A stretch of DNA of 62,304 bases from a virus: the IMG/VR virus record IMGVR_UViG_3300022745_000002, positions 1-62,304 of that record. One strand, written 5' to 3'. Shown piece by piece: positions 2,166 through 32,135 of this stretch. The translations under genes and the position numbers were made by a program. Below the pieces are notes generated by a model. It had not been told where the DNA came from and did no database searches. It saw only the letters and a list, made by a program, of their open reading frames with translations. How positions within the stretch are numbered: the first letter of the stretch is position 1; the number at the start of each line of letters is the position of its first letter.

Positions 2166-4238
2166 TTACTTGCCGTACACGTAGCCCGAATTCACTTCGG
2201 CGCGCAGCGGCAAGCCTGCGGCCCATGCGGGCGGATGGGTCATGATGTCGTAGAGCGCCGCCTTGCACTCCTCGTCCTCGTCCTCGTCGACCTCCAGCAG
2301 CGGCTCGTCGTGCGTGTGGCCGATCAGGGGCCAGCCATTGGTATCGAGCTCGCGGTTGGCCCAGCGCAGGATCGAGGCAGCCTCGGCCTGCGTGACGTTC
2401 TCGCACTGGATCCCGCCCCACAGCTTCATGCGCGGCCAGTAGTTGCTGTCCTTCTTCGGGTGGAAGGATCCCTTGATGCAGGTGATCATGTCCTGCGGGC
2501 CGAAGCGGCCGTCGACCGTCTCGACCTTGGGGAACGGATAGGCGAGCATGCGGCCGGACGGCAACAGGCACCACAGGATCGACTGCGCGCACATGTAGGC
2601 GACGCGCCCGGCGTGGAACACCTGCTCGGGGCTGCGCACGGCGTTGTAGGCGGCAAGCTCGAGCCCGCGCCAGAAACGCTCGGCCCACGGGTTCGACTGT
2701 CGCCACTTGATCTTCTGCATGTCCGCGAATTCGTGGTCGGCCGCGACACCGTAGGCGCGCGCCATGCGCAGGTACGCCCCGGCGCCGCCGCCGAAACCGA
2801 ACGACAGCACGGGCACCTTGCCGCCTGCCTGCCGCTGCGCCGCCGTGACCTGCTCCTCGCTCTGCAGGCCGTAGGTCATGACGGCCTGACGCAGGTAGAG
2901 ATCCTTACCCGCCGCGAAATAATCGAGCAGCTCGCTGGCGCTGTTCTCCTTCGACAGCCACGGGTTGACGACGGCCTCGATCGACGACCAGTCGCCCCAG
3001 ACCAGCTTCTTGCCGTCCTCGGCGACGATCGACGGCCGCAACAGGCGCGACAGGATCGTGAGCACGTTGTAGGGCTTGTCGATCGCGCCGCCCTTCGACT
3101 TGTCGAAGACGAACGTGCCGTCAGGATTGTAGCTGGCGATGTCGATCAGCTGCTGCTTCGGCACACGGCTAAGAACGCCAGCAACGACGTTTTCGATGTT
3201 CCCCAGTCCGGCGCGGATAAAATTATGGACTTGTAGTCCGGTCGAGGAGTAGCGGCCGGTTTGACCAGCACCGTTGAAGACATAGGCCCCCCTAACGCGC
3301 CCATCGACACCCGCTCGCGCCTGCATGGCAGCGAATTTAGCGGTGCTGGCCCGGCCGCCGTCGTGCACGAGTTCAACAAACTCGCGTACGTCGCCAACCA
3401 AGATGTCCGCGTTTTCTTCGGCGAGTAGTTCTTCACGAGTAGGACCATCGAACGACACCTTTCCCGTAGTCGCGTCGGGCTCCATGTATTCCTGCAGCTC
3501 GTGCGGCAACCACTTGGTGAGCCACGCCTTGATGCGCTGGAACTGCTTCGGCGACGTCACCTCGCCCTTGGTCAGCACCGTGAGGCGCGCCTTGATGTCT
3601 TCCAGCTCGTCGCGCGCATAGTGCTGCGCGGCGATCGCCAGTTCGACGTCGACCGGGATGCCGCGATCGTTCACCTTCTCGTTCAGGTGATAATCGGCCC
3701 ATTCCTCGGGCGTGAGGTCACGGATCACGTCGCCGATACCGATCTCGGTCAGCACGTCGACATCGCAATAGTCGAGCAGGATCTCGTATTCGGCCGGGTC
3801 GTCGGCCCAGCCGCCGTTCGGCAGCGGCTTGCACCATTTCATCATGATGCTGTTGTCGGCCTTCTGCACCGGCATGCGTAGCGCCTTGGCGCAGAGCTCC
3901 AGCTTGCCCGGCAGTGCCATCGCGCGCGCCCGGGCCATGGTGCAGCGGAAACGCTCGATGGGGATCTCGCGCTTCAATCCGTGACGGCAGGCAAGGCGCT
4001 CGAAATTCGCGTTCCACCCTTCGAATAGGCACTCGGGATCGTCGAGTGCGTCGGCGAGATCCTGCGGCATCGGCTCGCCCAGCCAGACACGCCAGCGCTT
4101 GATCGGCGTCTTGCCCTTGTCGAACGTGTAGTTGACGCAGAGCAGCTCGGTATCCGGGTGTGCCCAGTAGACGTAGGCACCGACGACGGTCAGGTCGACG
4201 GTGGCCGAGCTTTCAACGTCCCAGTTACAAATGCGCAT
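2166..4238 (-). CDS. Family A DNA polymerase with 3'-5' exonuclease domain
   Basis: Exo motifs DVESSA, NANFERL and YCDVDVL. Pol motifs GDWSSIEAVV (A), RQAGKVPVLSFGFGGG (B) and GHTHDEPLLEV (C). Confidence 0.93.
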   Translation of the reverse strand: MRICNWDVESSATVDLTVVGAYVYWAHPDTELLCVNYTFDKGKTPIKRWRVWLGEPMPQDLADALDDPECLFEGWNANFERLACRHGLKREIPIERFRCTMARARAMALPGKLELCAKALRMPVQKADNSIMMKWCKPLPNGGWADDPAEYEILLDYCDVDVLTEIGIGDVIRDLTPEEWADYHLNEKVNDRGIPVDVELAIAAQHYARDELEDIKARLTVLTKGEVTSPKQFQRIKAWLTKWLPHELQEYMEPDATTGKVSFDGPTREELLAEENADILVGDVREFVELVHDGGRASTAKFAAMQARAGVDGRVRGAYVFNGAGQTGRYSSTGLQVHNFIRAGLGNIENVVAGVLSRVPKQQLIDIASYNPDGTFVFDKSKGGAIDKPYNVLTILSRLLRPSIVAEDGKKLVWGDWSSIEAVVNPWLSKENSASELLDYFAAGKDLYLRQAVMTYGLQSEEQVTAAQRQAGGKVPVLSFGFGGGAGAYLRMARAYGVAADHEFADMQKIKWRQSNPWAERFWRGLELAAYNAVRSPEQVFHAGRVAYMCAQSILWCLLPSGRMLAYPFPKVETVDGRFGPQDMITCIKGSFHPKKDSNYWPRMKLWGGIQCENVTQAEAASILRWANRELDTNGWPLIGHTHDEPLLEVDEDEDEECKAALYDIMTHPPAWAAGLPLRAEVNSGYVYGK

Positions 4239-4262
4239 GTGGTGGATGCTCTCGCAGTAGGG

Positions 4263-4297
4263 CCGCCAGCGGCCGGGGGAGAGGAGCCGCTGGCGGG
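4263..4297 (-). promoter_or_regulatory. Intergenic GC-rich hairpin between the 4342..5172 gene and the polymerase gene
   Basis: An 11-bp stem (CCGCCAGCGGC / GCCGCTGGCGG) with a 13-nt loop and no U-tract. Possibly an attenuator or RNA processing site. Confidence 0.35.
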
Positions 4298-4341
4298 TAC
4301 GCTACACACTCACGCCGACAGGGGCAGCGTGAGATCTCGGG

Positions 4342-5172
4342 TCAGGCGGCCGCGCGGCGGCGACGACGCACCGTCGGGTCGGCGGCGGCGGCCGCAGCGG
4401 GCTGCTGGGCGGCCTGCGTCGCGGGGGCAGGCTGCTCGGGCGCCACGTCGGTGACGGGCCCACGGCCACGGCCCCGGCGCGGCGCTTCGGCCGTCTCCGC
4501 AACGGGCGGCTGGGCGGGCGGTGCCGTCGCCGCAGGCTGCTCGGCGGTCTTCGTCGTTTCGGCAGCGGCAGGCGACGGCGCGTCCATCGCGATCCACGAC
4601 TTGATGTCGAAGATCGGGTTGTAGGTCAGGCCGTAGGTGGCGTGCTGGTAGCTGTCGTAGGTCAGCGCGATCACCGGCACGATGTGCTTGGGATCCGTGT
4701 CGAGCTGCCGCTGCAGCGCGGCGACGAGGTCGCTGAAGGCCTTCTTGCCGCCGTAGCTGTTGGCGGTGTACTCGACCGTGATGCCCTTGTCCTCGCCGTT
4801 GGTGCACATCATCTCGAGCGAGATGTTGTCGTCCCACTTGGCGCCGAAGTTCGGCAGATCGGCGATGTTGATCGGCGTCTGGAAGATCGACACCATCTGC
4901 TTGCCGAGCGGCGCACCGCCCTTCGGGTTCCAGCAGACGAAGCCCACCTTCAGCGAGAGCGGGTTGACGGCCCAGAGCGAGCCTTCCTCGACCTCGGTGT
5001 CCTTGGCGCCGTAGACCCACGCGCCGTCGCGCTTGTCCATGCGGAGGAAGGCATTGCCGCCCGCCACCTGAATGGTCTGCGAAGCGTTGGCCAGCGCCTT
5101 GCGGAACTGGCCAACGTCAGCTGACGGAAGCCCGGCGGTCTTGAACGCTACCACGGAATTTTCGTTCGACAT
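4342..5172 (-). CDS. Replication-module protein of unknown function, possibly ssDNA-binding or annealing
   Basis: Sits between the Cas4-like nuclease and the polymerase, where SSB-type genes usually lie. Pro/Ala-rich tail ends in RRGRGRG...RRRRR. No motif recognised. Confidence 0.7.
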   Translation of the reverse strand: MSNENSVVAFKTAGLPSADVGQFRKALANASQTIQVAGGNAFLRMDKRDGAWVYGAKDTEVEEGSLWAVNPLSLKVGFVCWNPKGGAPLGKQMVSIFQTPINIADLPNFGAKWDDNISLEMMCTNGEDKGITVEYTANSYGGKKAFSDLVAALQRQLDTDPKHIVPVIALTYDSYQHATYGLTYNPIFDIKSWIAMDAPSPAAAETTKTAEQPAATAPPAQPPVAETAEAPRRGRGRGPVTDVAPEQPAPATQAAQQPAAAAAADPTVRRRRRAAA

Positions 5173-5253
5173 TTCTATGTACCTCTTGATGATTGCTGTT
5201 ACGTCTTCGTCGTAGCTCGTGCCTGTTTCCTCTTTACCTCTTACCCTTTCCTC
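5173..5253 (-). promoter_or_regulatory. AT-richer purine-rich leader with reiterated AAGAGG words upstream of 4342..5172
   Basis: The minus strand reads gtAAGAGGaaagggtAAGAGGtaAAGAGGaaac...catcAAGAGGtacatagaaATG. Confidence 0.45.
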
Positions 5254-6375
5254 TTACGCCAGACGCTTGAGCGCCTGACCCAGTGCCGCCGGGGGCAGCA
5301 CTGCCGGTCGCTTGTCAGCGGCCGGGGCGATAGTGTTGCCCGACGAGACCGGGTTGGCAAGTTCAGCGATCTCGGCCTTCGACAGGAGCTTCTCGGCGCC
5401 TGCTGGCGAGATCAGCTTGGTGACGATGTAATCGCTCTCCTTGATCTTCTTCGCCTTGAACCGCGCGATCGCGGCGGCCTCGTCGATCCACTTGCGGATC
5501 GCGCGCTTGGCCACGAGCTTCCAGCCCGGCACGGTGACGCCGTGCTCCAGCTCATGCTGGATCCGCTCCTCGGCCTCCTCGCGCCACTTGTCCCATTCCT
5601 GCAGCTTGGCGACCATCTTGCCGAGATCCTCGAGATCGAGGATGTGGTTCGGCGCCGTGAGCGTCGACAGGCGCTGCAGCTTGGCCGGGCAGGCGAGCTT
5701 GGCGTGGCAAAACTTGCCGCACCAGTCGCCTTCGACGAAAGCAGGGTTCGGCGCATCGCCGAGCTTGATCGCCGTGTGCACGGTCTGCTCGAACCGGTCG
5801 AGTGTCATCGCCGGGTAGATGGTCTTGTCGATCGCCGGATCGTAGGCGGGCTGAATGATGTAACTCTCGAACTCCTCGACCTGTGCAAACTCGGGGATGC
5901 TCTTGCGCGCGCAGACGCCGTAGAACAGGTTCTGCTCGCCCGAACTGTCGACCTCCATCTGGCCGAACTTGAAGTCGATCATGGCACCGCGCTTGCCGTG
6001 CACGATGCCCGCGTCCATCGTGCCACCCTTCTCGTCGTCGTCGGGGCCGCGCAGGCCGACAAACTTCTCGGAGAACAGCGTCGCGTCCTCGGGAAACGTC
6101 TCGACGATGTCCATGTAGGCGTCGAGCGCGATCTGCAACGCGTTCACGTGCTCCTTCGTAATGACGACGCTGGACACCGTGGTGCCGAGGAACGACGACG
6201 GTGCGAGGTCGGGATCCTTGAGCATCATCTCCATGCAGGTGTGCTGCGCGGTGCCCTCGATCGCCGCGAGCCCTACCGGCCTGCGCGGCACCTGCCGGGC
6301 GAGTTGGATGTAGCCCGCGCAGTTGATCCAGAGATGGGCGTTGGACCCGCCGCGTTCGACATGTTTCTCGGCCAT
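5254..6375 (-). CDS. PD-(D/E)XK Cas4-like exonuclease (DUF2800-type)
   Basis: AMIDFKFGQ core and a C-terminal Cys cluster (CGKFCHAKLACP). Part of the familiar nuclease / polA / VirE-primase / VRR-NUC / SNF2 module. Confidence 0.85.
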   Translation of the reverse strand: MAEKHVERGGSNAHLWINCAGYIQLARQVPRRPVGLAAIEGTAQHTCMEMMLKDPDLAPSSFLGTTVSSVVITKEHVNALQIALDAYMDIVETFPEDATLFSEKFVGLRGPDDDEKGGTMDAGIVHGKRGAMIDFKFGQMEVDSSGEQNLFYGVCARKSIPEFAQVEEFESYIIQPAYDPAIDKTIYPAMTLDRFEQTVHTAIKLGDAPNPAFVEGDWCGKFCHAKLACPAKLQRLSTLTAPNHILDLEDLGKMVAKLQEWDKWREEAEERIQHELEHGVTVPGWKLVAKRAIRKWIDEAAAIARFKAKKIKESDYIVTKLISPAGAEKLLSKAEIAELANPVSSGNTIAPAADKRPAVLPPAALGQALKRLA

Positions 6376-16778: not shown

Positions 16779-17104
16779 GCACGATCATCACACGCCCGGC
16801 CTTCGAAGGGCCGCACATACTCGCGACGACGGCACCGACGCTGCTTGCGATGAACGAGGCCTGCCGCCAGATGGATCTCGCGCAGCAGGTGCTGCAGAAC
16901 TACGTCGATGCCAAGCGGCAAGGCAAGATCATCAACTGCTTCGTCTGGCGCACGGCGGTCGAGCTGACGGGCATGGGCAAGGTGTGGAAGGACAAGCGCG
17001 GGCACCGCACCTTGCATCGGGTGCGCGTGACTTATGGCGACTGGGCCGCGCTCGACGCGCTGATCGAGGAGGCGCTTGCACATTACGCGGCGCAGAAGTC
17101 ATGA
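16775..17104 (+). CDS. Hypothetical protein (109 aa)
   Basis: ATGA overlap. Tail of the 16727 track ORF. Confidence 0.6.
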   Translation: MSTIITRPAFEGPHILATTAPTLLAMNEACRQMDLAQQVLQNYVDAKRQGKIINCFVWRTAVELTGMGKVWKDKRGHRTLHRVRVTYGDWAALDALIEEALAHYAAQKS

Positions 17105-26117: not shown

Positions 26118-26365
26118 GCAAGCTCGTCCTCCCCGAAGGCGTCGCCGCCCAGCTCGCCATGCCACCGGTCGGCGAGCTCACGCTCGAGGATCCGCAGGGC
26201 CGCGCGATCTACATGCCACAGGAAGACATCACGCCGTACGAGCTCGCGCTGATCGTGCGCCTGTTCTTCCGCCTGACCTTGGGCGGCCCGCTCGGCATGA
26301 CGCCGGACTGGCGCAAGTTCCTCGACGAGCATAAGCTCGACCGCCATTTTCAACCGGCCACATAG
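26114..26365 (+). CDS. Hypothetical protein (83 aa)
   Basis: ATGA overlap. Confidence 0.6.
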   Translation: MSKLVLPEGVAAQLAMPPVGELTLEDPQGRAIYMPQEDITPYELALIVRLFFRLTLGGPLGMTPDWRKFLDEHKLDRHFQPAT

Positions 26366-26375
26366 GAGCCAAGTC

Positions 26376-26858
26376 ATGGACATCGTCACCAACATCGAAG
26401 GCGCGTTCGAGCGTGTCGAGGCCTACGTCAAAAACCTGCTCGACAACGGCGCGCCGCACCAGCAGCAGCACGCGACCGACGTGAAGATGGTTCTCGACAC
26501 GGCACGCACGCAGGCGCTGCCCGACACGCAGACGCCGCAGATCGCGCAGCTGCAGGACGATCTCAACGACGCCAACGCCAAGATCACCAACCTGCAAGGC
26601 AGCATCGACAGTCTGATGGATGTGCGCGACAGCCTGCAGACGCAGCTCGATGCGGCCAATGCCAAGGTGAAGGCGCTCGAGGAGACCGACAACGCCACGA
26701 TCGCGGAGCTGCGCATGCAGCTGGCAGCGTTGCCCACGAACGCGCCTGCGGGCGCGCTGTCGGCGGCGGCCGAACCGGTCGGCGGGCGCATCGCCAGCGA
26801 CCCGAGCCTGAACCCCGACGTGGTGCCGCCGGGCGTCACTGTCGAAGCCAAGCTGTAA
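26376..26858 (+). CDS. Coiled-coil protein (160 aa)
   Basis: GGAG ribosome-binding site. Heptad-like QLQDDLNDANAKITNLQGSIDSLMDVRDSLQTQLDAANAKVKALEE. Confidence 0.65.
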   Translation: MDIVTNIEGAFERVEAYVKNLLDNGAPHQQQHATDVKMVLDTARTQALPDTQTPQIAQLQDDLNDANAKITNLQGSIDSLMDVRDSLQTQLDAANAKVKALEETDNATIAELRMQLAALPTNAPAGALSAAAEPVGGRIASDPSLNPDVVPPGVTVEAKL

Positions 26859-26859
26859 C

Positions 26860-27075
26860 GTGGCCGAGCACACTCTGGGGGATGCGGACGTCATCAAGAC
26901 GTTCCGTGTCCTCCTCGCCGCATGCGTGAAGAAGCAGGGCGTGCTGAACAAGCTCGTCCTGTCTCGGGCCGACCTCGAGCGCGCGGGCGAAGGCAAGCTC
27001 AAGGTCGAGCAGCGGCCGGACGGCTCGATCAAGCTGTCGATCGAGAAAGAGCCGCCCAAGCTTCTGGTGAACTGA
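26860..27075 (+). CDS. Hypothetical protein (71 aa, GTG start)
   Basis: Starts 1 nt after the previous stop. Confidence 0.5.
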   Translation: MAEHTLGDADVIKTFRVLLAACVKKQGVLNKLVLSRADLERAGEGKLKVEQRPDGSIKLSIEKEPPKLLVN

Positions 27076-27255
27076 GGAACAGGATGCCGCACGATCGCGA
27101 CGTACGGCATGGGTGGGGACAACAGCGCGTAGCGGCGCGGGTGCGGCCAGTGAAGCAGCATCGTACTCAAGCCGTCGGTAACGGCGGTGGATTGCTCCTT
27201 AGCGTTGTCGGTGCTACGCCCCTGCAAAACCGTCGCTTTTTCTTGTGCGAGCTGC

Positions 27256-27348
27256 ATGCCCCAAGTCATTGAGTGGAACGGCCACAAGGTCGATGTCGAT
27301 CGCGCCCTCATGGAGATCACCCGTGAGGAGTGCGACGCATGCCGCTAG
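27256..27348 (+). pseudogene. Stranded resident 5' end of terL (30 codons, then a stop)
   Basis: MPQVIEWNGHKVDVDRALMEITREECDACR* versus TerL MTQIIEWRGHKIDVDRALMEITREECE.... By hand count, 22/27 aa and 59/81 nt are identical. Confidence 0.8.
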
Positions 27349-27790
27349 CACGTCCTATTCTCGCACGACTGTTGGATTTGCTCGACATCCAAGGGCCGGA
27401 TGACTGCTGGCTGTGGAAAGGTCGCGTTCACAAGAGCGGGTATGCGTATATCTCGAAAGGCGGCAAGGGCGGCGCAATGCTTCTCATGCATCGTGTCTCG
27501 TGGTGCGAACACAACAATTGTCCGGTGCCGGAAGGTGATGCAGGCAACAGCAAATTGACTGAGGATCTCGTTCGTCTTATTCGCGCGGATGAGCGTTCTC
27601 AACGCACGATTGCGGCCGAGCTTGGTGTCGACCAGACATTGATCAGCATGATAAAACTGCGCAAAGTTTGGGCGCACGTAACATGACGCAGATCATCGAA
27701 TGGCGCGGGCATAAGATCGATGTAGATCGCGCATTGATGGAGATCACGAGAGAAGAATGTGAAAGTTCGCTTTACACCTTCCTCATGCAT
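27337..27790 (+). mobile_element. Free-standing homing-endonuclease cassette plus donor-type terL 5' tract (boundaries approximate)
   Basis: An AT-richer block bounded on the left by the break in terL homology and on the right by the return to GC-rich codons. Confidence 0.6.
27339..27686 (+). CDS. Degenerate HNH_3-type endonuclease with the catalytic core deleted and the HTH tail retained
   Basis: GPDDCWLWKG...SGYAYI...LMHRVSW...PVPEG runs straight into NSKLTEDLVRLIR...SQRTIAAELGVDQTLISMIKLRKVWAHV. The usual H-x-C-D-N-x-x-C-x-N-P-x-H-L segment is absent. Confidence 0.7.
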   Translation: MPLARPILARLLDLLDIQGPDDCWLWKGRVHKSGYAYISKGGKGGAMLLMHRVSWCEHNNCPVPEGDAGNSKLTEDLVRLIRADERSQRTIAAELGVDQTLISMIKLRKVWAHVT

Positions 27791-29341
27791 GCGTGGCGCT
27801 TCATCGACCCGGCGCCGTTCAAGCCGGGCTGGGTGATCGATGCGCTCGCCGAGCATCTCGAGGCCGTGGTCGACGGTGAGATCCGCCGTCTGCTGATCAA
27901 CATCCCGCCGCGCTGTTCCAAGTCATCGATCTGCTCGGTCGCCTTCCCGGCATGGGTGTGGGCACAGAGTTTCAAGAGTGCGACCAGCGGGCCGGGCGTG
28001 GCGCTGCTGCACGCGTCCTACGCGCACTCACTGGCCCTGCGCGACAGCGTGAAGTGCCGCCGCCTGCTGAAGAGCACGTGGTACCAGCGCATGTGGGGCG
28101 ATCGCTTCAAGATCACGCCCGATCAGGACATGAAGATCCGCTTCCAGAACGACAAGGGAGGCGAGCGCCTGATCACCTCGGTCGACGCTGGCGTTACCGG
28201 TGAAGGCGGCAACATCATCATCGTCGACGATCCGAACAACGCGAAGGAAGTCCTGTCCGAGGCCGTGATCCAGTCGACCAACGAAGACTGGTGGGACGGC
28301 ACGATGAGCACGCGTCTCAACGATCCGAAGACCGGCGCCTTCATCGTCGTGCAGCAGCGTCTGGGCGAGAACGACCTGACCGGCCACATCCTCGCGAAGG
28401 AAGCGGCCGACTGGACGCACCTGATGCTGCCGATGGAGTACGAGCCCGATCGCAGCTTCACCACGGTCATCGGGTGGGAAGATCCGCGCACCGAAGAAGG
28501 CGAGCTGCTCTGGCCCGAGCGCTTCGGCCATGAGGAAGTGGCAAAGCTCAAGAGCAACCTAGGTTCGTGGAAGAGCGCCGGTCAGCTGCAGCAGCGCCCG
28601 GAGCCGAAGGGTGGCGGCATCATCAAGCGAGACTGGTGGAAGCTCTGGCCGCCCGAGGGCGAGGAGTTCAACAAGCGTGGTGAGCCGCTGCGGCCGCTGC
28701 AGAACCCGCCGTGCAGCTTCATCATCGCCAGCCTCGACACGGCCTACACCGAAAAGACGATCAACGACCCGAGCGCTCTCACGATCTGGGGCGTGTTCGC
28801 GGGCGACCCGGTGGCGCAGGAAGTGCGTGCCAGCGACGAGCACAGCGTGCGCGTCTACACCGAGACGTCGACACGCGTGATCTTGCTGCACGCATGGACG
28901 AAGCACCTCGAGATCCACCCGCTCGTCAACGAGGTGGCCAAGAGCTGCAAGCAGTTCAACGTCGACAAGCTCCTGATCGAGGACAAGGCGGCAGGACACA
29001 GCGTGGCGCAGGAGCTGCGACGCCTGTTCTCGAACGAGAACTGGGCCGTGCAGCTGATCAACCCGAAGAACCTCGACAAGCTCGCGCGCCTCTACTCCGT
29101 GCAGCATCTTTGGGAAGAGGGCATGATCTACGCCCCCGAGCGCACGTGGGCCGAGGCCGTCATCGCCCAGTGCGGCACCTTCCCCAACGCCGCGCACGAC
29201 GATCTCGTCGACACGACCAGCATGGCGTTGCGGCACATGCGCGACATCGGCCTGCTCCAGCGCGGCACCGAGATCACGGCTGACGTGACCGAGGCCGTGC
29301 GACATACTGGCCGCCCACCGCAGAGGTTGTACCCATCATGA
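27683..29341 (+). CDS. terL: Terminase large subunit
   Basis: P-loop-like INIPPRCSKSS. Walker B IIIVDDPN. C-terminal nuclease region with LLIEDKAAG. Start at ATG 27683 (the track ORF begins at 27668). Confidence 0.92.
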   Translation: MTQIIEWRGHKIDVDRALMEITREECESSLYTFLMHAWRFIDPAPFKPGWVIDALAEHLEAVVDGEIRRLLINIPPRCSKSSICSVAFPAWVWAQSFKSATSGPGVALLHASYAHSLALRDSVKCRRLLKSTWYQRMWGDRFKITPDQDMKIRFQNDKGGERLITSVDAGVTGEGGNIIIVDDPNNAKEVLSEAVIQSTNEDWWDGTMSTRLNDPKTGAFIVVQQRLGENDLTGHILAKEAADWTHLMLPMEYEPDRSFTTVIGWEDPRTEEGELLWPERFGHEEVAKLKSNLGSWKSAGQLQQRPEPKGGGIIKRDWWKLWPPEGEEFNKRGEPLRPLQNPPCSFIIASLDTAYTEKTINDPSALTIWGVFAGDPVAQEVRASDEHSVRVYTETSTRVILLHAWTKHLEIHPLVNEVAKSCKQFNVDKLLIEDKAAGHSVAQELRRLFSNENWAVQLINPKNLDKLARLYSVQHLWEEGMIYAPERTWAEAVIAQCGTFPNAAHDDLVDTTSMALRHMRDIGLLQRGTEITADVTEAVRHTGRPPQRLYPS

Positions 29342-29343
29342 GA

Positions 29344-29371
29344 AACGCCGTAGCCTTGCGACTACGGCGTT
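29344..29371 (+). terminator. Hairpin immediately after terL
   Basis: 10-bp stem AACGCCGTAG / CTACGGCGTT with an 8-nt loop. No clear U-tract. Confidence 0.4.
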
Positions 29372-29498
29372 CTAGATAGAGGGGCCGGACGCGAGGTGAA
29401 CAGCGCGCCCGACCAACGCCCCTTTCCTATTAGCCCGACCGAAGGTCGGACAAGGTGTGAATGCGTTTCATGGCAACCTCCTAGGTTTTGAGCGAACA

Positions 29499-29741
29499 AT
29501 GAAGCCTACCAAAACAAAACACTTTGTCACGCCCGCGCAGGCCACGGTCAAGCTGCTGGGCAAGGAGATCGGTGGCGGCGGCGGCTGGTTCGAGGTCACA
29601 GTCAGGACGGCGCCGGGCTGGCCCGACCCGAAAAGCCGGGTCTATACGATCCGGGCGATTTCGGATAATGTCGCAGCCCTTGACGGTTTGCATCGGTTCG
29701 AGGAGGAGCTGAGAGAGCCTAAACCCTCTGTGGTGCACTGA
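29499..29741 (+). CDS. Hypothetical protein (80 aa)
   Basis: Internal ATG of the 29457 track ORF. Immediately precedes the portal gene. Confidence 0.5.
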   Translation: MKPTKTKHFVTPAQATVKLLGKEIGGGGGWFEVTVRTAPGWPDPKSRVYTIRAISDNVAALDGLHRFEEELREPKPSVVH

Positions 29742-29744
29742 CAC

Positions 29745-32135
29745 ATGGCTGGCCTCGTACCCGGGCATAACATCCGCCTCGACGACCATAGCGATCGCGC
29801 GCCGGGCGAACCGTCGCCGGTCGATGTCATCGTGCAGGAAGACCCGGAAGATCCCGCGCAGGACCGCGAAATACGCGACAACAAGGGCCAGCTCCTGCGC
29901 ATCGAGCACCCCGACGGCTCGATCACGATCTCGACCAGCGGCGGCCCGATCCAAGACGAGAACGAAGAAGACGACCCGAACCCCAAGAACTGGTTCGCCA
30001 ACCTCGCGGGCAAGATCCCCGAGATGCAGGCTGGCGCGATCGTCGAAAAGCTCATGCGCGGCATCCAAGAGGACATCACCAGCCGCAGCGACTGGATCAG
30101 CCAGCGCACCGAGGCCATGAAGATGCTCGGCCTCAAGATCGAGACACCGGACACGGGCGACAGCGCCGACGGTGCGGCCGTCGAAGGCATGAGCCGCGTG
30201 CGCCATCCGTTGATGCTCGAGGCCGTGCTGCGCTTTCAGGCGAACGCCATGGCCGAGCTCATGCCGGTCGACGGTCCGGTGAAGATCCGCGACGACAACG
30301 TCAACAGCACCAACGCCGAGGACGACCTCGCCGACGCCCTGCAGAAGGATTTCAATCACTTCCTCACGGTGACGGACAAGAGCTACTACCCCGACACCGA
30401 CCGCATGTTGCTGCGCTTCGGCTTCGGCGGGCTGGCCTACAAGAAGGTCTACTTCTCGCCGATCCACAACCGGCCGACCAGCGAGTATGTCGATGCCGAC
30501 GCACTGGTCGTGAACAGCAACGCCGTCGACCTGTCGAGCGCCAAGCGCGTCACGCACATCATCATGATGCCGCCGTCGCTGGTGCGGCGCATGCAGATCC
30601 TCGGTGTCTATCGCGACGTATCGCTCACGACGCCGAACGCACCCTCGGCCGACCCGATGAAGGCGGCGGTCAAGGAGCAGGAAGGCATCTCGCCCGACAC
30701 CACGCAGCCCGACGACCGCGATCGCGAGATCTACGAATGCTACTGCGAGCTCGACCTGCCCGGGTTCGAGCACCAGTGGCGCGGCAAGCCCTCGGGGCTC
30801 GAGGTGCCGTACCGCGTCACGATCGACGTCTCCTCGCGCCAGCTCCTGTCTCTGGTACGCGACTATGATCGCGACACCGCCGACCTGCCCGTGCGCCGCG
30901 AGACCTTCGTCGAGTACGTCTTCGTGCCGGGCTTCGGCTACTACCCGATCGGCCTTGCGCAGATCCTCGGCAACACCACGAACGCCGTCACGGCCGCATG
31001 GCGCATCATGCTCGACAACGGCATGTTCGCGAATTTCCCGGGTGGCCTGATCTCCAAGGCGGCCGGGCGGCAGAACACCAATATCCAGCGCGTGCCACCG
31101 GGCAGCTTCGTGCCGGTCGAGACCAACGGCATGCCGATCGGCGATGCCGTGCACCCGCTGCCGTACAACTCGCAGGGCATGCCCGCGATGATGTCGCTGA
31201 CCGACAACATGGTCGCGCAGGGCCAACGCGTCGGCGCCACGAGCGAGCAGCCGGTCGGCGAAGGGCGACAGGACGCACCGGTCGGCACGACGCTGGCGCT
31301 GATCGAGCAGGCGCAGAAGGTGCTCAACTCGGTGCACAAGCGCATGCACAGCGCGCAGGCGCGCGAGCTGCAGCTGCTGGCCAAGTGTTTCAAGGAGCAC
31401 CCGGAGAGCTTCTGGCAGCAGAACCGCACGCCTGCGCATCAATGGGACGAACAGACCTTCCTCAAGGCGCTCAGCAATTCCAACCTCGTGCCGCAGTCCG
31501 ACCCGAACACCGCGAGCCAAGTGCAGCGCCTGATGAAGCTCGGCGCGCTAATCATGCTCGCTGAGAAGAACCCGTCGCTCTACGACCCGATTGCCATTGC
31601 GCGCGCCGCCGTCAAGGCGCTGGGCTACAGCAACGCCGAGCAGTTCCTCGCGCCGCCCGCGAGCCAAGGCAAGCCGACGCCCGAACAGCAGAAGGATCAG
31701 GCCGACACCGCCATCAAGAAGGCGCTCGCCGACGCGCAGACGCTGCGCGCGCAGAACGAGGCGAAGAAGACCGATGCCGAGATCGGCAAGATGCAGCAGG
31801 ACATGGGCCTCGCAGGTGCGCGCCTCAAGCTCGACACCGAAAGCACGCAGACCAAGGACAAGGTCGCGGTGGCCACGGCGCACCTCAACGCCGCGCTCAA
31901 GAACAAGGAGCTCGATCAGGATACCAGCAAGGAGCTGGTGGCTGAGAGCGTGCAGCTGATCGACGTCGCGCAGAACCTCGCCGTGCATCCCGAGAGCGCG
32001 CACATGGTCGGCCCGCTGATCCAGCCCGCCCTCGAGGACGTGCTTCGCCGTCGCAAGGAGCAGGACCAGAAACAGAAAGGTGGCGGCGATCTCGGCGCTG
32101 CCGCGATACCGATCCCCGAGGAGCCCGCGCAATGA
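29745..32135 (+). CDS. Portal protein (by size and position)
   Basis: 796 aa, first large gene after terL. Acidic N- and C-terminal extensions. No motif verified. Confidence 0.7.
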   Translation: MAGLVPGHNIRLDDHSDRAPGEPSPVDVIVQEDPEDPAQDREIRDNKGQLLRIEHPDGSITISTSGGPIQDENEEDDPNPKNWFANLAGKIPEMQAGAIVEKLMRGIQEDITSRSDWISQRTEAMKMLGLKIETPDTGDSADGAAVEGMSRVRHPLMLEAVLRFQANAMAELMPVDGPVKIRDDNVNSTNAEDDLADALQKDFNHFLTVTDKSYYPDTDRMLLRFGFGGLAYKKVYFSPIHNRPTSEYVDADALVVNSNAVDLSSAKRVTHIIMMPPSLVRRMQILGVYRDVSLTTPNAPSADPMKAAVKEQEGISPDTTQPDDRDREIYECYCELDLPGFEHQWRGKPSGLEVPYRVTIDVSSRQLLSLVRDYDRDTADLPVRRETFVEYVFVPGFGYYPIGLAQILGNTTNAVTAAWRIMLDNGMFANFPGGLISKAAGRQNTNIQRVPPGSFVPVETNGMPIGDAVHPLPYNSQGMPAMMSLTDNMVAQGQRVGATSEQPVGEGRQDAPVGTTLALIEQAQKVLNSVHKRMHSAQARELQLLAKCFKEHPESFWQQNRTPAHQWDEQTFLKALSNSNLVPQSDPNTASQVQRLMKLGALIMLAEKNPSLYDPIAIARAAVKALGYSNAEQFLAPPASQGKPTPEQQKDQADTAIKKALADAQTLRAQNEAKKTDAEIGKMQQDMGLAGARLKLDTESTQTKDKVAVATAHLNAALKNKELDQDTSKELVAESVQLIDVAQNLAVHPESAHMVGPLIQPALEDVLRRRKEQDQKQKGGGDLGAAAIPIPEEPAQ

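Follow-up and report, generated by a model that had tools for sequence, protein, structure and literature searches.

In the viral record IMGVR_UViG_3300022745_000002 of IMG/VR, whose 62,304 nucleotides (nt; positions 1 to 62,304, one strand) form the stretch of DNA analyzed here and are referred to as the window, the gene of the terminase large subunit (terL) is preceded by a short, stranded copy of its own first codons (the stub) and, between that copy and the gene, by an open reading frame (ORF) related to HNH endonucleases. This arrangement very probably results from the insertion of a homing-endonuclease cassette inside terL, the nuclease of which has since been lost in this genome. The element is a discrete cassette (27336-27769) that comprises an endonuclease gene and a recoded version of terL nt 1-87, and it lies within resident terL between nt 80 and nt 88; it is recognized as discrete because the positions that set it apart stop at nt 87, and because its boundaries are identical in the two genomes that carry it, the window and the related locus L081. 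The initial annotation of the window had proposed that an inactivated homing endonuclease, copied in together with a terL 5' flank, rebuilt the terL gene, and this reading is both supported and sharpened by the intact homologue of the endonuclease in L081 and by relatives in which the site is empty.

The terL 5' end and the cassette within it

The upstream and downstream copies of the terL 5' end (27256-27336 and 27683-27763) are identical at 59 of 81 nucleotides and at 22 of 27 amino acids (aa), exactly as had been counted by hand at the outset, and a separate repeat search recovers them as an 81-nt direct repeat (27255-27335 and 27682-27762, 74% identical, with a spacing of 427 nt). The binomial tail for at least 59 matches in 81 is 1.4e-17, or approximately 3e-8 once corrected for all position pairs in the window, and a tblastn search of the window with the 27-residue peptide returns these two matches only (E values of 1e-16 and 7e-14), with no third. 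Eighteen of the first 27 codons differ between the copies and 13 of these 18 differences are synonymous, as the initial annotation had stated for most of them; synonymous sites are saturated, with 14 of 15 differing. The TAG that closes the upstream copy stands where it had been placed. The two copies also differ in composition: the GC content of third codon positions (GC3) is 0.81 in the upstream copy and 0.88 in the rest of terL, against 0.59 in the downstream copy (first 27 codons, nt 1-81) and 0.58 in the intervening ORF, which bears out the earlier contrast between a GC-rich upstream copy and an AT-richer downstream copy and ORF. Codons ending in A or T are in excess in the first 36 codons of terL (14 of 36, against 60 of 516; Fisher P = 6e-5). 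The AT-rich tract that had been described as running about 100 nt into terL is thus real as regards composition, but rather than fading as a co-conversion tract it is a discrete block that ends at nt 87 (27769).

Comparison with relatives indicates which copy is native. The stub is identical at 71-74 of 80 nt to four terL alleles with an empty site (73-74 of 80 for those of loci L133 and L130), whereas the downstream copy matches the same alleles at 58-62 of 80. The closest TerL proteins (P0011-13 and P0015, with 93-95% amino acid identity) have an N-terminus of the upstream-copy type, beginning MSQVIEWNGHKVDVDRALMEITREECEESLY, and 15 diagnostic positions, at which both filled alleles are alike and unlike the four empty ones, fall within terL nt 10-87, the next being found at nt 270. 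These comparisons support the assignment, made at the level of sequence, of the upstream copy to the resident terL 5' end and of the downstream copy to a foreign source. The earlier notion of a sequence copied from a lower-GC relative is upheld as to the foreign, low-GC3 nature of the downstream copy, but the lower-GC donor was not found, and among 120 TerL homologues an N-terminus of this type (copy B) is confined to the two filled alleles; evolution inside the cassette may have produced it as an uncleavable version of the target. The idea of a stranded resident remnant holds for the origin of the stub, which shows no visible decay: its ORF is open in both genomes and nearly all of its differences are synonymous, a state attributed mainly to recent derivation from functional terL alleles.

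The boundaries of the insertion are precise. The left-junction sequence, GACGCATGCCG, is identical in the window and L081; on the right the foreign block ends at terL nt 87 in both filled genomes, stub homology ends at nt 80, and resident nt 81-87, seven bases that read GGAGAGC in L133, are missing from both filled alleles. The insertion falls at terL codons 27-29, in sequence that encodes the conserved CEESL motif, whose E27 and L30 are invariant in 40 homologues; Ser28 (E28S, the usual residue being Glu) is unique to the filled alleles among these 40. As in homing genes, the insertion thus occupies a conserved part of an essential gene, and the filled allele is altered at the site.

The 115-residue product of the intervening ORF matches no Pfam family at E <= 1, while HNH-endonuclease families of PHROG match its residues 5-66 and, separately, 71-115. 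A search of 5.8 billion proteins identified one close relative, P0002 (157 aa, from L081), which is 94% identical over the retained residues, and a protein database search with the intact enzyme yielded P0001 and P0002 as the only close hits. In the alignment P0002 is longer by 42 residues, located between window residues 66 and 67 (KDILHDCDVPLCGNPRHLDPGTHLQNMQQKVARGRQARNRGT), which shows that 126 nt encoding the catalytic core have been deleted in frame from the window gene. In seven HNH_3-positive homologues, the segment aligned with this missing block is the LHxCDxPxCxNPxHL...N core; all 42 residues of the H-N-H core and its Cys-rich zinc loop, which P0002 retains as LHDCDVPLCGNPRHLDPGTHLQN, are absent from the window protein, so that the loss of roughly 40 residues proposed initially is confirmed as one of exactly 42. 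No obvious microhomology is seen at the deletion junction. The regions typical of the family on either side of the core, namely the N-terminal CWxW region and the C-terminal SKLT segment with its helix-turn-helix (HTH), are present in the window ORF, and both the PHROG matches and the homologue alignment agree with the earlier claim that the N-terminal half and the HTH tail of an HNH_3-type enzyme had been kept; residues C23, W24, W26, R52, V53, S71, K72, L73, T74, R82, and W111 are invariant across nine homologues.

This order of an N-terminal CWxW/zinc region, an H-N-H core, and a C-terminal NSKLTE segment with HTH is that of the I-HmuI-like enzymes of HNH_3 (PF13392), with the difference that the window protein lacks the core and that intact P0002 is itself a sub-threshold match (16.9 bits); two distant homologues, P0004 and the gene in locus L083, score 48.5 and 49.6 bits, respectively. 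A profile of the endonuclease family searched against the PDB gave marginal HTH matches as well as I-HmuI (1u3e) at E = 0.77. Judged from its sequence, the window ORF is a truncated derivative of a divergent HNH_3 member, not a member as it stands. It is of note that the truncated endonuclease is highly conserved at the protein level with respect to the intact one (nonsynonymous divergence, dN, of 0.041; synonymous divergence, dS, of about 1.5), which could mean either that the deletion is recent or that the DNA-binding remainder is still useful. A weak tblastn match of P0003 at 16934-17077 was rejected, being unlike an HNH gene.

The terL gene that results is a hybrid whose start coincides with the Met at which TerL begins in relatives. 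The AlphaFold model of TerL (mean pLDDT of 82) places a hairpin at residues 1-13, a helix at residues 14-28, and a break at residue 29, which is the junction, so that the exchanged N-terminal piece is, in the model, a discrete structural unit (β-hairpin plus helix). Since the carried copy brings a start codon and the first 29 codons, TerL is of full length without RNA or protein splicing. With respect to expression, the stub TAG overlaps the endonuclease ATG (27339), and the endonuclease stop overlaps the terL ATG (27683) as ATGA. The putative Shine-Dalgarno (SD) sequence GAGGAG, inside the stub, is predicted to form a duplex of -8.8 kcal/mol with the anti-SD sequence, which ends at -8 from the endonuclease ATG and is the strongest among the starts examined; the terL ATG, which overlaps the endonuclease stop, shows weak SD pairing, and there is no SD sequence before the stub ATG. 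A scan of 26300-28300 detected no promoter-like site. Terminator-like sites are lacking from the cassette and its vicinity, the sole hit of this kind lying on the minus strand at 28158-28179, inside terL, which is fewer than shuffled sequences give. TerL synthesis thus probably depends on a termination-reinitiation relay that would lead from the stub through the endonuclease ORF to terL. A relay of coupled ORFs would favor in-frame over frameshifting decay of the endonuclease gene, and the ORFs probably stay open because terL, with its weak SD, is translated in this manner.

Table 1. Features of the cassette and its surroundings (window positions)
Feature	Position	Strand	Description
Conserved 71-aa gene	26860..27075	+	Left neighbor of terL in empty-site relatives; 84% nt identity to L001/L002; also in L081, L130, L133
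Unique spacer, 180 nt	27076..27255	+	Hypervariable slot upstream of original terL start; no similarity to any fetched locus
Possible 62-aa ORF	27084-27272	+	Starts 8 nt after stop of 71-aa gene; SD-like GAGGA before ATG; overlaps stub by 17 nt
Upstream copy (copy A, stub)	27256..27348	+	Read as resident terL nt 1-80 (27256-27335), now a 30-codon mini-ORF, MPQVIEWNGHKVDVDRALMEITREECDACR, with stop TAG at 27346-27348
GAGGAG, SD-like for endonuclease (putative)	27322..27327	+	Copy A codons 24-25, 11 nt upstream of ATG; kept in L081
Left junction	27336..27338	+	Resident terL homology ends after ...GAGGAGTGCGA (27335); CGC, then endonuclease ATG (alignment with L133, L130, L001)
Endonuclease gene remnant, 115 aa	27339..27686	+	N-terminal CWxW/zinc region and C-terminal NSKLTE + HTH tail kept; H-N-H core gone
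Deletion scar, in-frame, 126 nt (42 codons)	27535..27536	+	Best split of alignment with L081 3789-4262
Downstream copy (copy B)	27683..27769	+	Read as foreign replacement of terL nt 1-87 (codons 1-29); working terL start
terL, 552 aa, hybrid	27683..29341	+	Codons 1-29 read as foreign, remainder as resident; PHROG 38 terminase large subunit, E = 4.5e-88; Pfam Terminase_6C

Filled and empty sites among relatives

Locus L081 has the same architecture as the window, with a stub (3706-3795, reading MPQVIKWNGHKVDVDRALMEITREECDACR up to its stop), an intact endonuclease gene (3789-4262), and terL (4259-5917). These two are the filled genomes; more than 50 relatives have an empty terL, with one N-terminus and no endonuclease gene. 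Among 80 terL loci of IMG/VR, none carries a homologue of the endonuclease, and each of those that reach the N-terminal region (about 45) has a single N-terminus; on the contigs of P0011-13 and P0015, terL directly follows the upstream genes. The empty site that the initial annotation had suggested looking for was therefore found, including in the near-isogenic locus L133. The cassette displays what characterizes a homing endonuclease gene, that is, a presence/absence polymorphism at one site with clean empty sites.

The terL gene of L133 is 98% identical to that of L081, and the differences between them are distributed in blocks: nt 1-87 contain 26 mismatches, nt 88-221 are identical, and the 1,438 nt that follow account for another 32. 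Over nt 17-80, the stub of L081 agrees with L133 terL at 63 of 64 positions. From terL nt 17 rightward the two loci are approximately 98% identical, whereas there are five mismatches in nt 1-16 and identity drops to 73% upstream, which indicates a recombination breakpoint in the first terL codons, separate from the cassette junction. Seven mismatches are clustered within the 49 nt of L133 2586-2634 and L081 4480-4528 (terL nt 222-270), in a gene that is otherwise 98-99% identical; this is probably another small mosaic patch. The three terL lineages represented by the window, by L130, and by the L081/L133 pair are approximately equidistant from each other (12-13.5%), and the 2% that separates L081 from L133 makes the difference in cassette content between these two a recent gain or loss. 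The possibility that the empty allele of L133 arose by deletion between the two copies was rejected, its nt 66-87 being of resident type.

Wider searches added no further examples. A blastn search of 26300-28800 against 50,697 phage records gave no match, and TerL proteins of cultured phages are at most 44% identical, in alignments that begin at residue 17 or later. Scans of metagenome and viral contigs with the intact enzyme revealed neither a donor nor further copies of the cassette, the best match reaching 41% identity. The TerL scan of genome contigs found only one 1.9-kb contig of a Verrucomicrobia metagenome-assembled genome (57% identity), and no host is therefore suggested.

Proposed history and competing explanations

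The history that would account for this locus begins with a donor whose endonuclease gene, located just upstream of its own terL, encoded an enzyme that would have cleaved a related terL in or close to codons 27-29. Homology would have let the donor serve as template for repair on the right side of the break, and the left end would have been joined illegitimately just before the endonuclease ATG, in a "one-sided" repair; illegitimate break repair of this kind has a precedent in T4 (PMC2988022). Since then the homology arms would have been the stub (80 nt) on the left and, on the right, the terL sequence that starts at nt 88. The cassette could home into any terL of the clade irrespective of what precedes it, which would benefit the element given how variable that upstream region is. 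Neither the split stub nor the recoded copy, with its unique E28S change, would be open to cleavage any longer. In the window, the core-deleted element would represent the degeneration phase of the homing cycle: with the H-N-H core removed by the 126-nt deletion it should be immobile on its own, although the site is probably still immune to the active enzyme of relatives and the cassette could probably still be mobilized in trans.

A number of observations weigh against this reading. Cleavage activity and target site are predictions for every member of the family, and intact P0002 scores 16.9 bits on Pfam HNH_3 (E = 0.005, residues 50-94), below the gathering cut-off of 24.8. A donor with a free endonuclease gene upstream of a copy-B-type terL was not found in any collection searched, which makes the origin step purely inferential. 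Only two filled genomes are known, and their endonucleases are more diverged (17% at the nucleotide level, dS of about 1.5) than their terL backbones (12%, dS of 0.44), so that the cassette must be old and not recently passed between them. Upstream of terL nt 16 there is strong divergence between L081 and L133, which form an isogenic pair only rightward of that point, and the choice between gain in L081 and loss in L133 is a matter of argument; an intact enzyme in L081 and clean flanks favor gain by homing, while L133 might alternatively have undergone replacement by recombination with an empty allele. The dN/dS ratios are very low (0.02 for the stub and 0.03 for the truncated endonuclease), and the products could have functions outside this model. 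Finally, the translational relay has little to stand on in a phage many of whose genes have a weak SD sequence.

The low ratio of the stub raises the question of whether it could be a maintained, translated mini-gene, whose peptide, in copying the first hairpin and helix of TerL, might associate with a partner of TerL (the small terminase subunit, for instance) or hinder the terminase of co-infecting phages that lack the cassette. Between the window and L081, eight synonymous changes and one nonsynonymous change are seen in the 30 codons of the stub (dS of 0.69, dN of 0.014), and neutrality would give at least eight synonymous changes in nine with a probability of about 1.7e-5; both filled genomes keep the ORF intact, its stop overlaps the endonuclease ATG, the upstream ORF ends 17 nt inside it in both, which suggests that the stub is translated, and residues 1-28 are modeled as a discrete hairpin-plus-helix unit. 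This comparison, however, involves two sequences only, the stub ATG has no SD sequence, and the peptide is hypothetical. In addition, the near-identity of the L081 stub to the functional terL of L133 (63 of 64 over nt 17-80) means that such a synonymous bias can be inherited from functional alleles that circulated shortly before insertion or recombination. A selected mini-gene is for these reasons considered unlikely.

The other explanations leave more of the locus unaccounted for. It is very improbable that the intervening ORF encodes a non-mobile HNH protein that works with the terminase as a packaging accessory (of the HK97 gp74 or GVE2 type), with the duplication being incidental. Such genes are well documented beside terminase genes (PMC10055350, PMC12724721), and the ORF is coupled to terL by the ATGA overlap and conserved in its retained residues (dN of 0.04), but a gene absent from more than 50 relatives, including L133 with a terL 98% identical to that of L081, is not conserved in presence; moreover, its catalytic core is deleted in the window, the enzymes homologous to it are of the HNH_3 kind and carry an HTH at the C-terminus (I-HmuI being only a marginal match of the profile), and the duplicated, recoded terL 5' end would be left without explanation. 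A terL split by a group I or group II intron, or by another spliced or bypassed element, with the stub as exon 1, would recall phage ICP1, where a short, unannotated N-terminal terL exon lies beside an endonuclease gene (PMC10055350), and the joining of stub codon 27 to terL codons 28-30 would indeed be in frame and give a normal TerL. It is nevertheless extremely improbable, given that Rfam detects no family at E <= 1 on either strand of 26800-28000, that the endonuclease ORF takes up all of the 334 nt (460 nt in L081) that separate the stub stop from the terL ATG and leaves no room for a ribozyme core, and that the stub ends in a stop while the downstream terL is complete at its N-terminus and begins with an ATG of its own where the family usually starts. 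An in-situ tandem duplication of the terL 5' end, with an endonuclease gene landing between copies that then diverged, would dispense with the donor that was not found, and direct repeats flanking an insert can come from replication slippage or illegitimate recombination; however, synonymous divergence between the two copies has reached saturation (14 of 15 sites) while the rest of terL differs by only 2% between L081 and L133, the downstream copy has the low GC3 of the endonuclease gene and not that of the genome, and L133, of resident type at nt 66-87, is not derivable from L081 by recombination between the copies. This scenario, too, is most improbable.

Comparable elements, neighboring loci, and meaning

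The closest precedent for the logic of a cassette inserted inside terL, by analogy, is provided by the mORF hybrids of fungal mitochondria, described for Allomyces macrogynus atp6, for atp6, atp9, cox2, and nad3 of Glomus, for Rhizopus atp9, and for Mortierella cox2, in which an inserted C-terminal copy is followed by the endonuclease ORF and the stranded native C-terminus (PMC3630166). In both cases a free-standing endonuclease ORF lies near the end of an essential gene and carries a divergent, in-frame replacement for that end, while the native end is duplicated beyond the ORF; here these parts are the stub (27256-27335), the ORF (27339-27686), and the carried copy (27683-27769), which is continuous with terL. 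Likewise, the native copy resembles and groups with close relatives, and the inserted, working copy is divergent, with differences that are mostly synonymous or conservative. The fungal elements, by contrast, are organellar, encode LAGLIDADG or GIY-YIG enzymes, and replace 3' (C-terminal) ends, whereas the present element involves a phage (with a terminase and an SU10-type portal gene), an HNH_3-type enzyme, and a 5' end, and for that reason has to bring a start codon and translation initiation as well, with the stub becoming an upstream mini-ORF. The terL cassette works like this class without being one of the elements described.

Other systems share some of these features. In intronless homing, known from SegB, SegF, SegG, and MobE of T4, a free-standing endonuclease gene beside an essential gene directs cutting of the endonuclease-less allele in the neighboring gene and spreads by break repair with co-conversion of flanks, and defunct genes are mobilizable in trans (PMC2988022; PMC2330249; PMC2790892); the classical genes, however, are intergenic, with variable tracts and no duplicated fragment, while the cassette lies inside coding sequence with fixed, identical boundaries. 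Endonuclease genes also interrupt essential coding regions, without intron or intein, in the genes-in-pieces created by mobE in nrdA of Aeromonas phage Aeh1 and by mobA in T4 gene 39/60 (PMC2988022), but the product of the host gene there consists of two polypeptides that reassemble, whereas here the gene is made whole by the carried duplicate end. The collaborative homing of the ICP1 terL intron and the adjacent T5orf172 endonuclease (PMC10055350) likewise targets the 5' region of terL and leaves a short N-terminal piece separate; terL is restored there by RNA splicing, whereas no intron is detected here by Rfam and the downstream gene is complete. In the literature searched, which omits most subscription journals, no phage report was found of an endonuclease gene flanked by a duplicated or replaced gene end, or of a 5'-end version. 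Phage genes of the HNH_3 type may, as a tentative generalization that is somewhat less probable than not, use a third way of invasion besides introns and inteins, in the form of a cassette with a recoded, cleavage-immune substitute for the displaced gene end (5' in terL, 3' in the primase-like gene of L083/L084), whose stub would double as a homology arm that makes homing independent of the hypervariable flank and, in terL, as an SD-bearing leader ORF of the relay on which TerL expression would now depend, with the stub and even a dead endonuclease ORF being kept open and conserved.

The region upstream of terL is itself variable. Between the conserved 71-aa gene and the original terL ATG lies a slot of very different sizes (window 27076-27255, L001 1123-1127, L133 2280-2364, L130 4663-5001, and L081 3097-3705), which is occupied by 5 nt (in L001/L002 the stop of the 71-aa gene lies 5 nt before the terL ATG), 6 nt, 85 nt, the 180 nt of the window, a 112-aa gene, or genes of 116 aa and 92 aa, the latter with a Tat-signal-like start; this boundary looks like a second hot spot of insertion or exchange. 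The possible 62-aa ORF in the window begins ATGCCGCA, as does the L081 stub, has a GC3 of approximately 0.6 by hand count, and ends at the same out-of-frame stop (CATTGA/CATTAA) as the upstream ORF of L081; no relatives of either this ORF or the 180-nt spacer were found. On the other side of terL, the interval up to the SU10-type portal gene holds a conserved gene of 77 aa in relatives, and in the window (29341-29745) an ORF of 94 aa (29457-29741) takes its place.

A mirror image of the terL arrangement is seen in L083 (1401-2039; also in L084, 51-689), where a 37%-identical HNH_3 gene (1466-1966) has on either side the 3'-terminal 20 codons of a primase-like gene. That gene ends in ...DDFVLAEPEVAVPLIKSWME before its stop, and after the HNH_3 stop there is a second copy, NDWVLAKPEEALPTIKRWLSDAGN, again followed by a stop; the in-frame copy has a GC content of 0.43, compared to 0.56 in the gene body. 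No empty-site relative of this primase-like gene was found. L083/L084 is a 3'-end version with an HNH_3 gene, independent of the terL case. Elsewhere in the clade (L040-L045; P0026, P0041, P0044, P0050, P0112), terL is about 1 kb longer and includes intein and LAGLIDADG/Hom_end Pfam domains, which indicates that the same terL family has been invaded by inteins at another place in the gene, and L090 (81-125 and 1005-1049) has two tandem HNH_3-type genes with similar N-termini, MTKKDIARFWAKVNV and MTKKDVIRFWNKVDI.

Natural filled, empty, and degenerate alleles at one site illustrate how a selfish nuclease enters an essential phage coding sequence without splicing, by way of a substitute gene end. 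Short "orphan" ORFs upstream of terL or of other core genes may be stranded gene ends of this type. The first 29 codons of terL in the filled alleles have a separate history and should be masked in terL phylogenies and recombination analyses, while the alleles of L133 and L081 type offer a ready target/enzyme pair for exploring an uncharacterized HNH_3 specificity. A mechanism known from fungal mitochondria would thus be extended to phages and to 5' ends, where translation initiation must be rebuilt as well.

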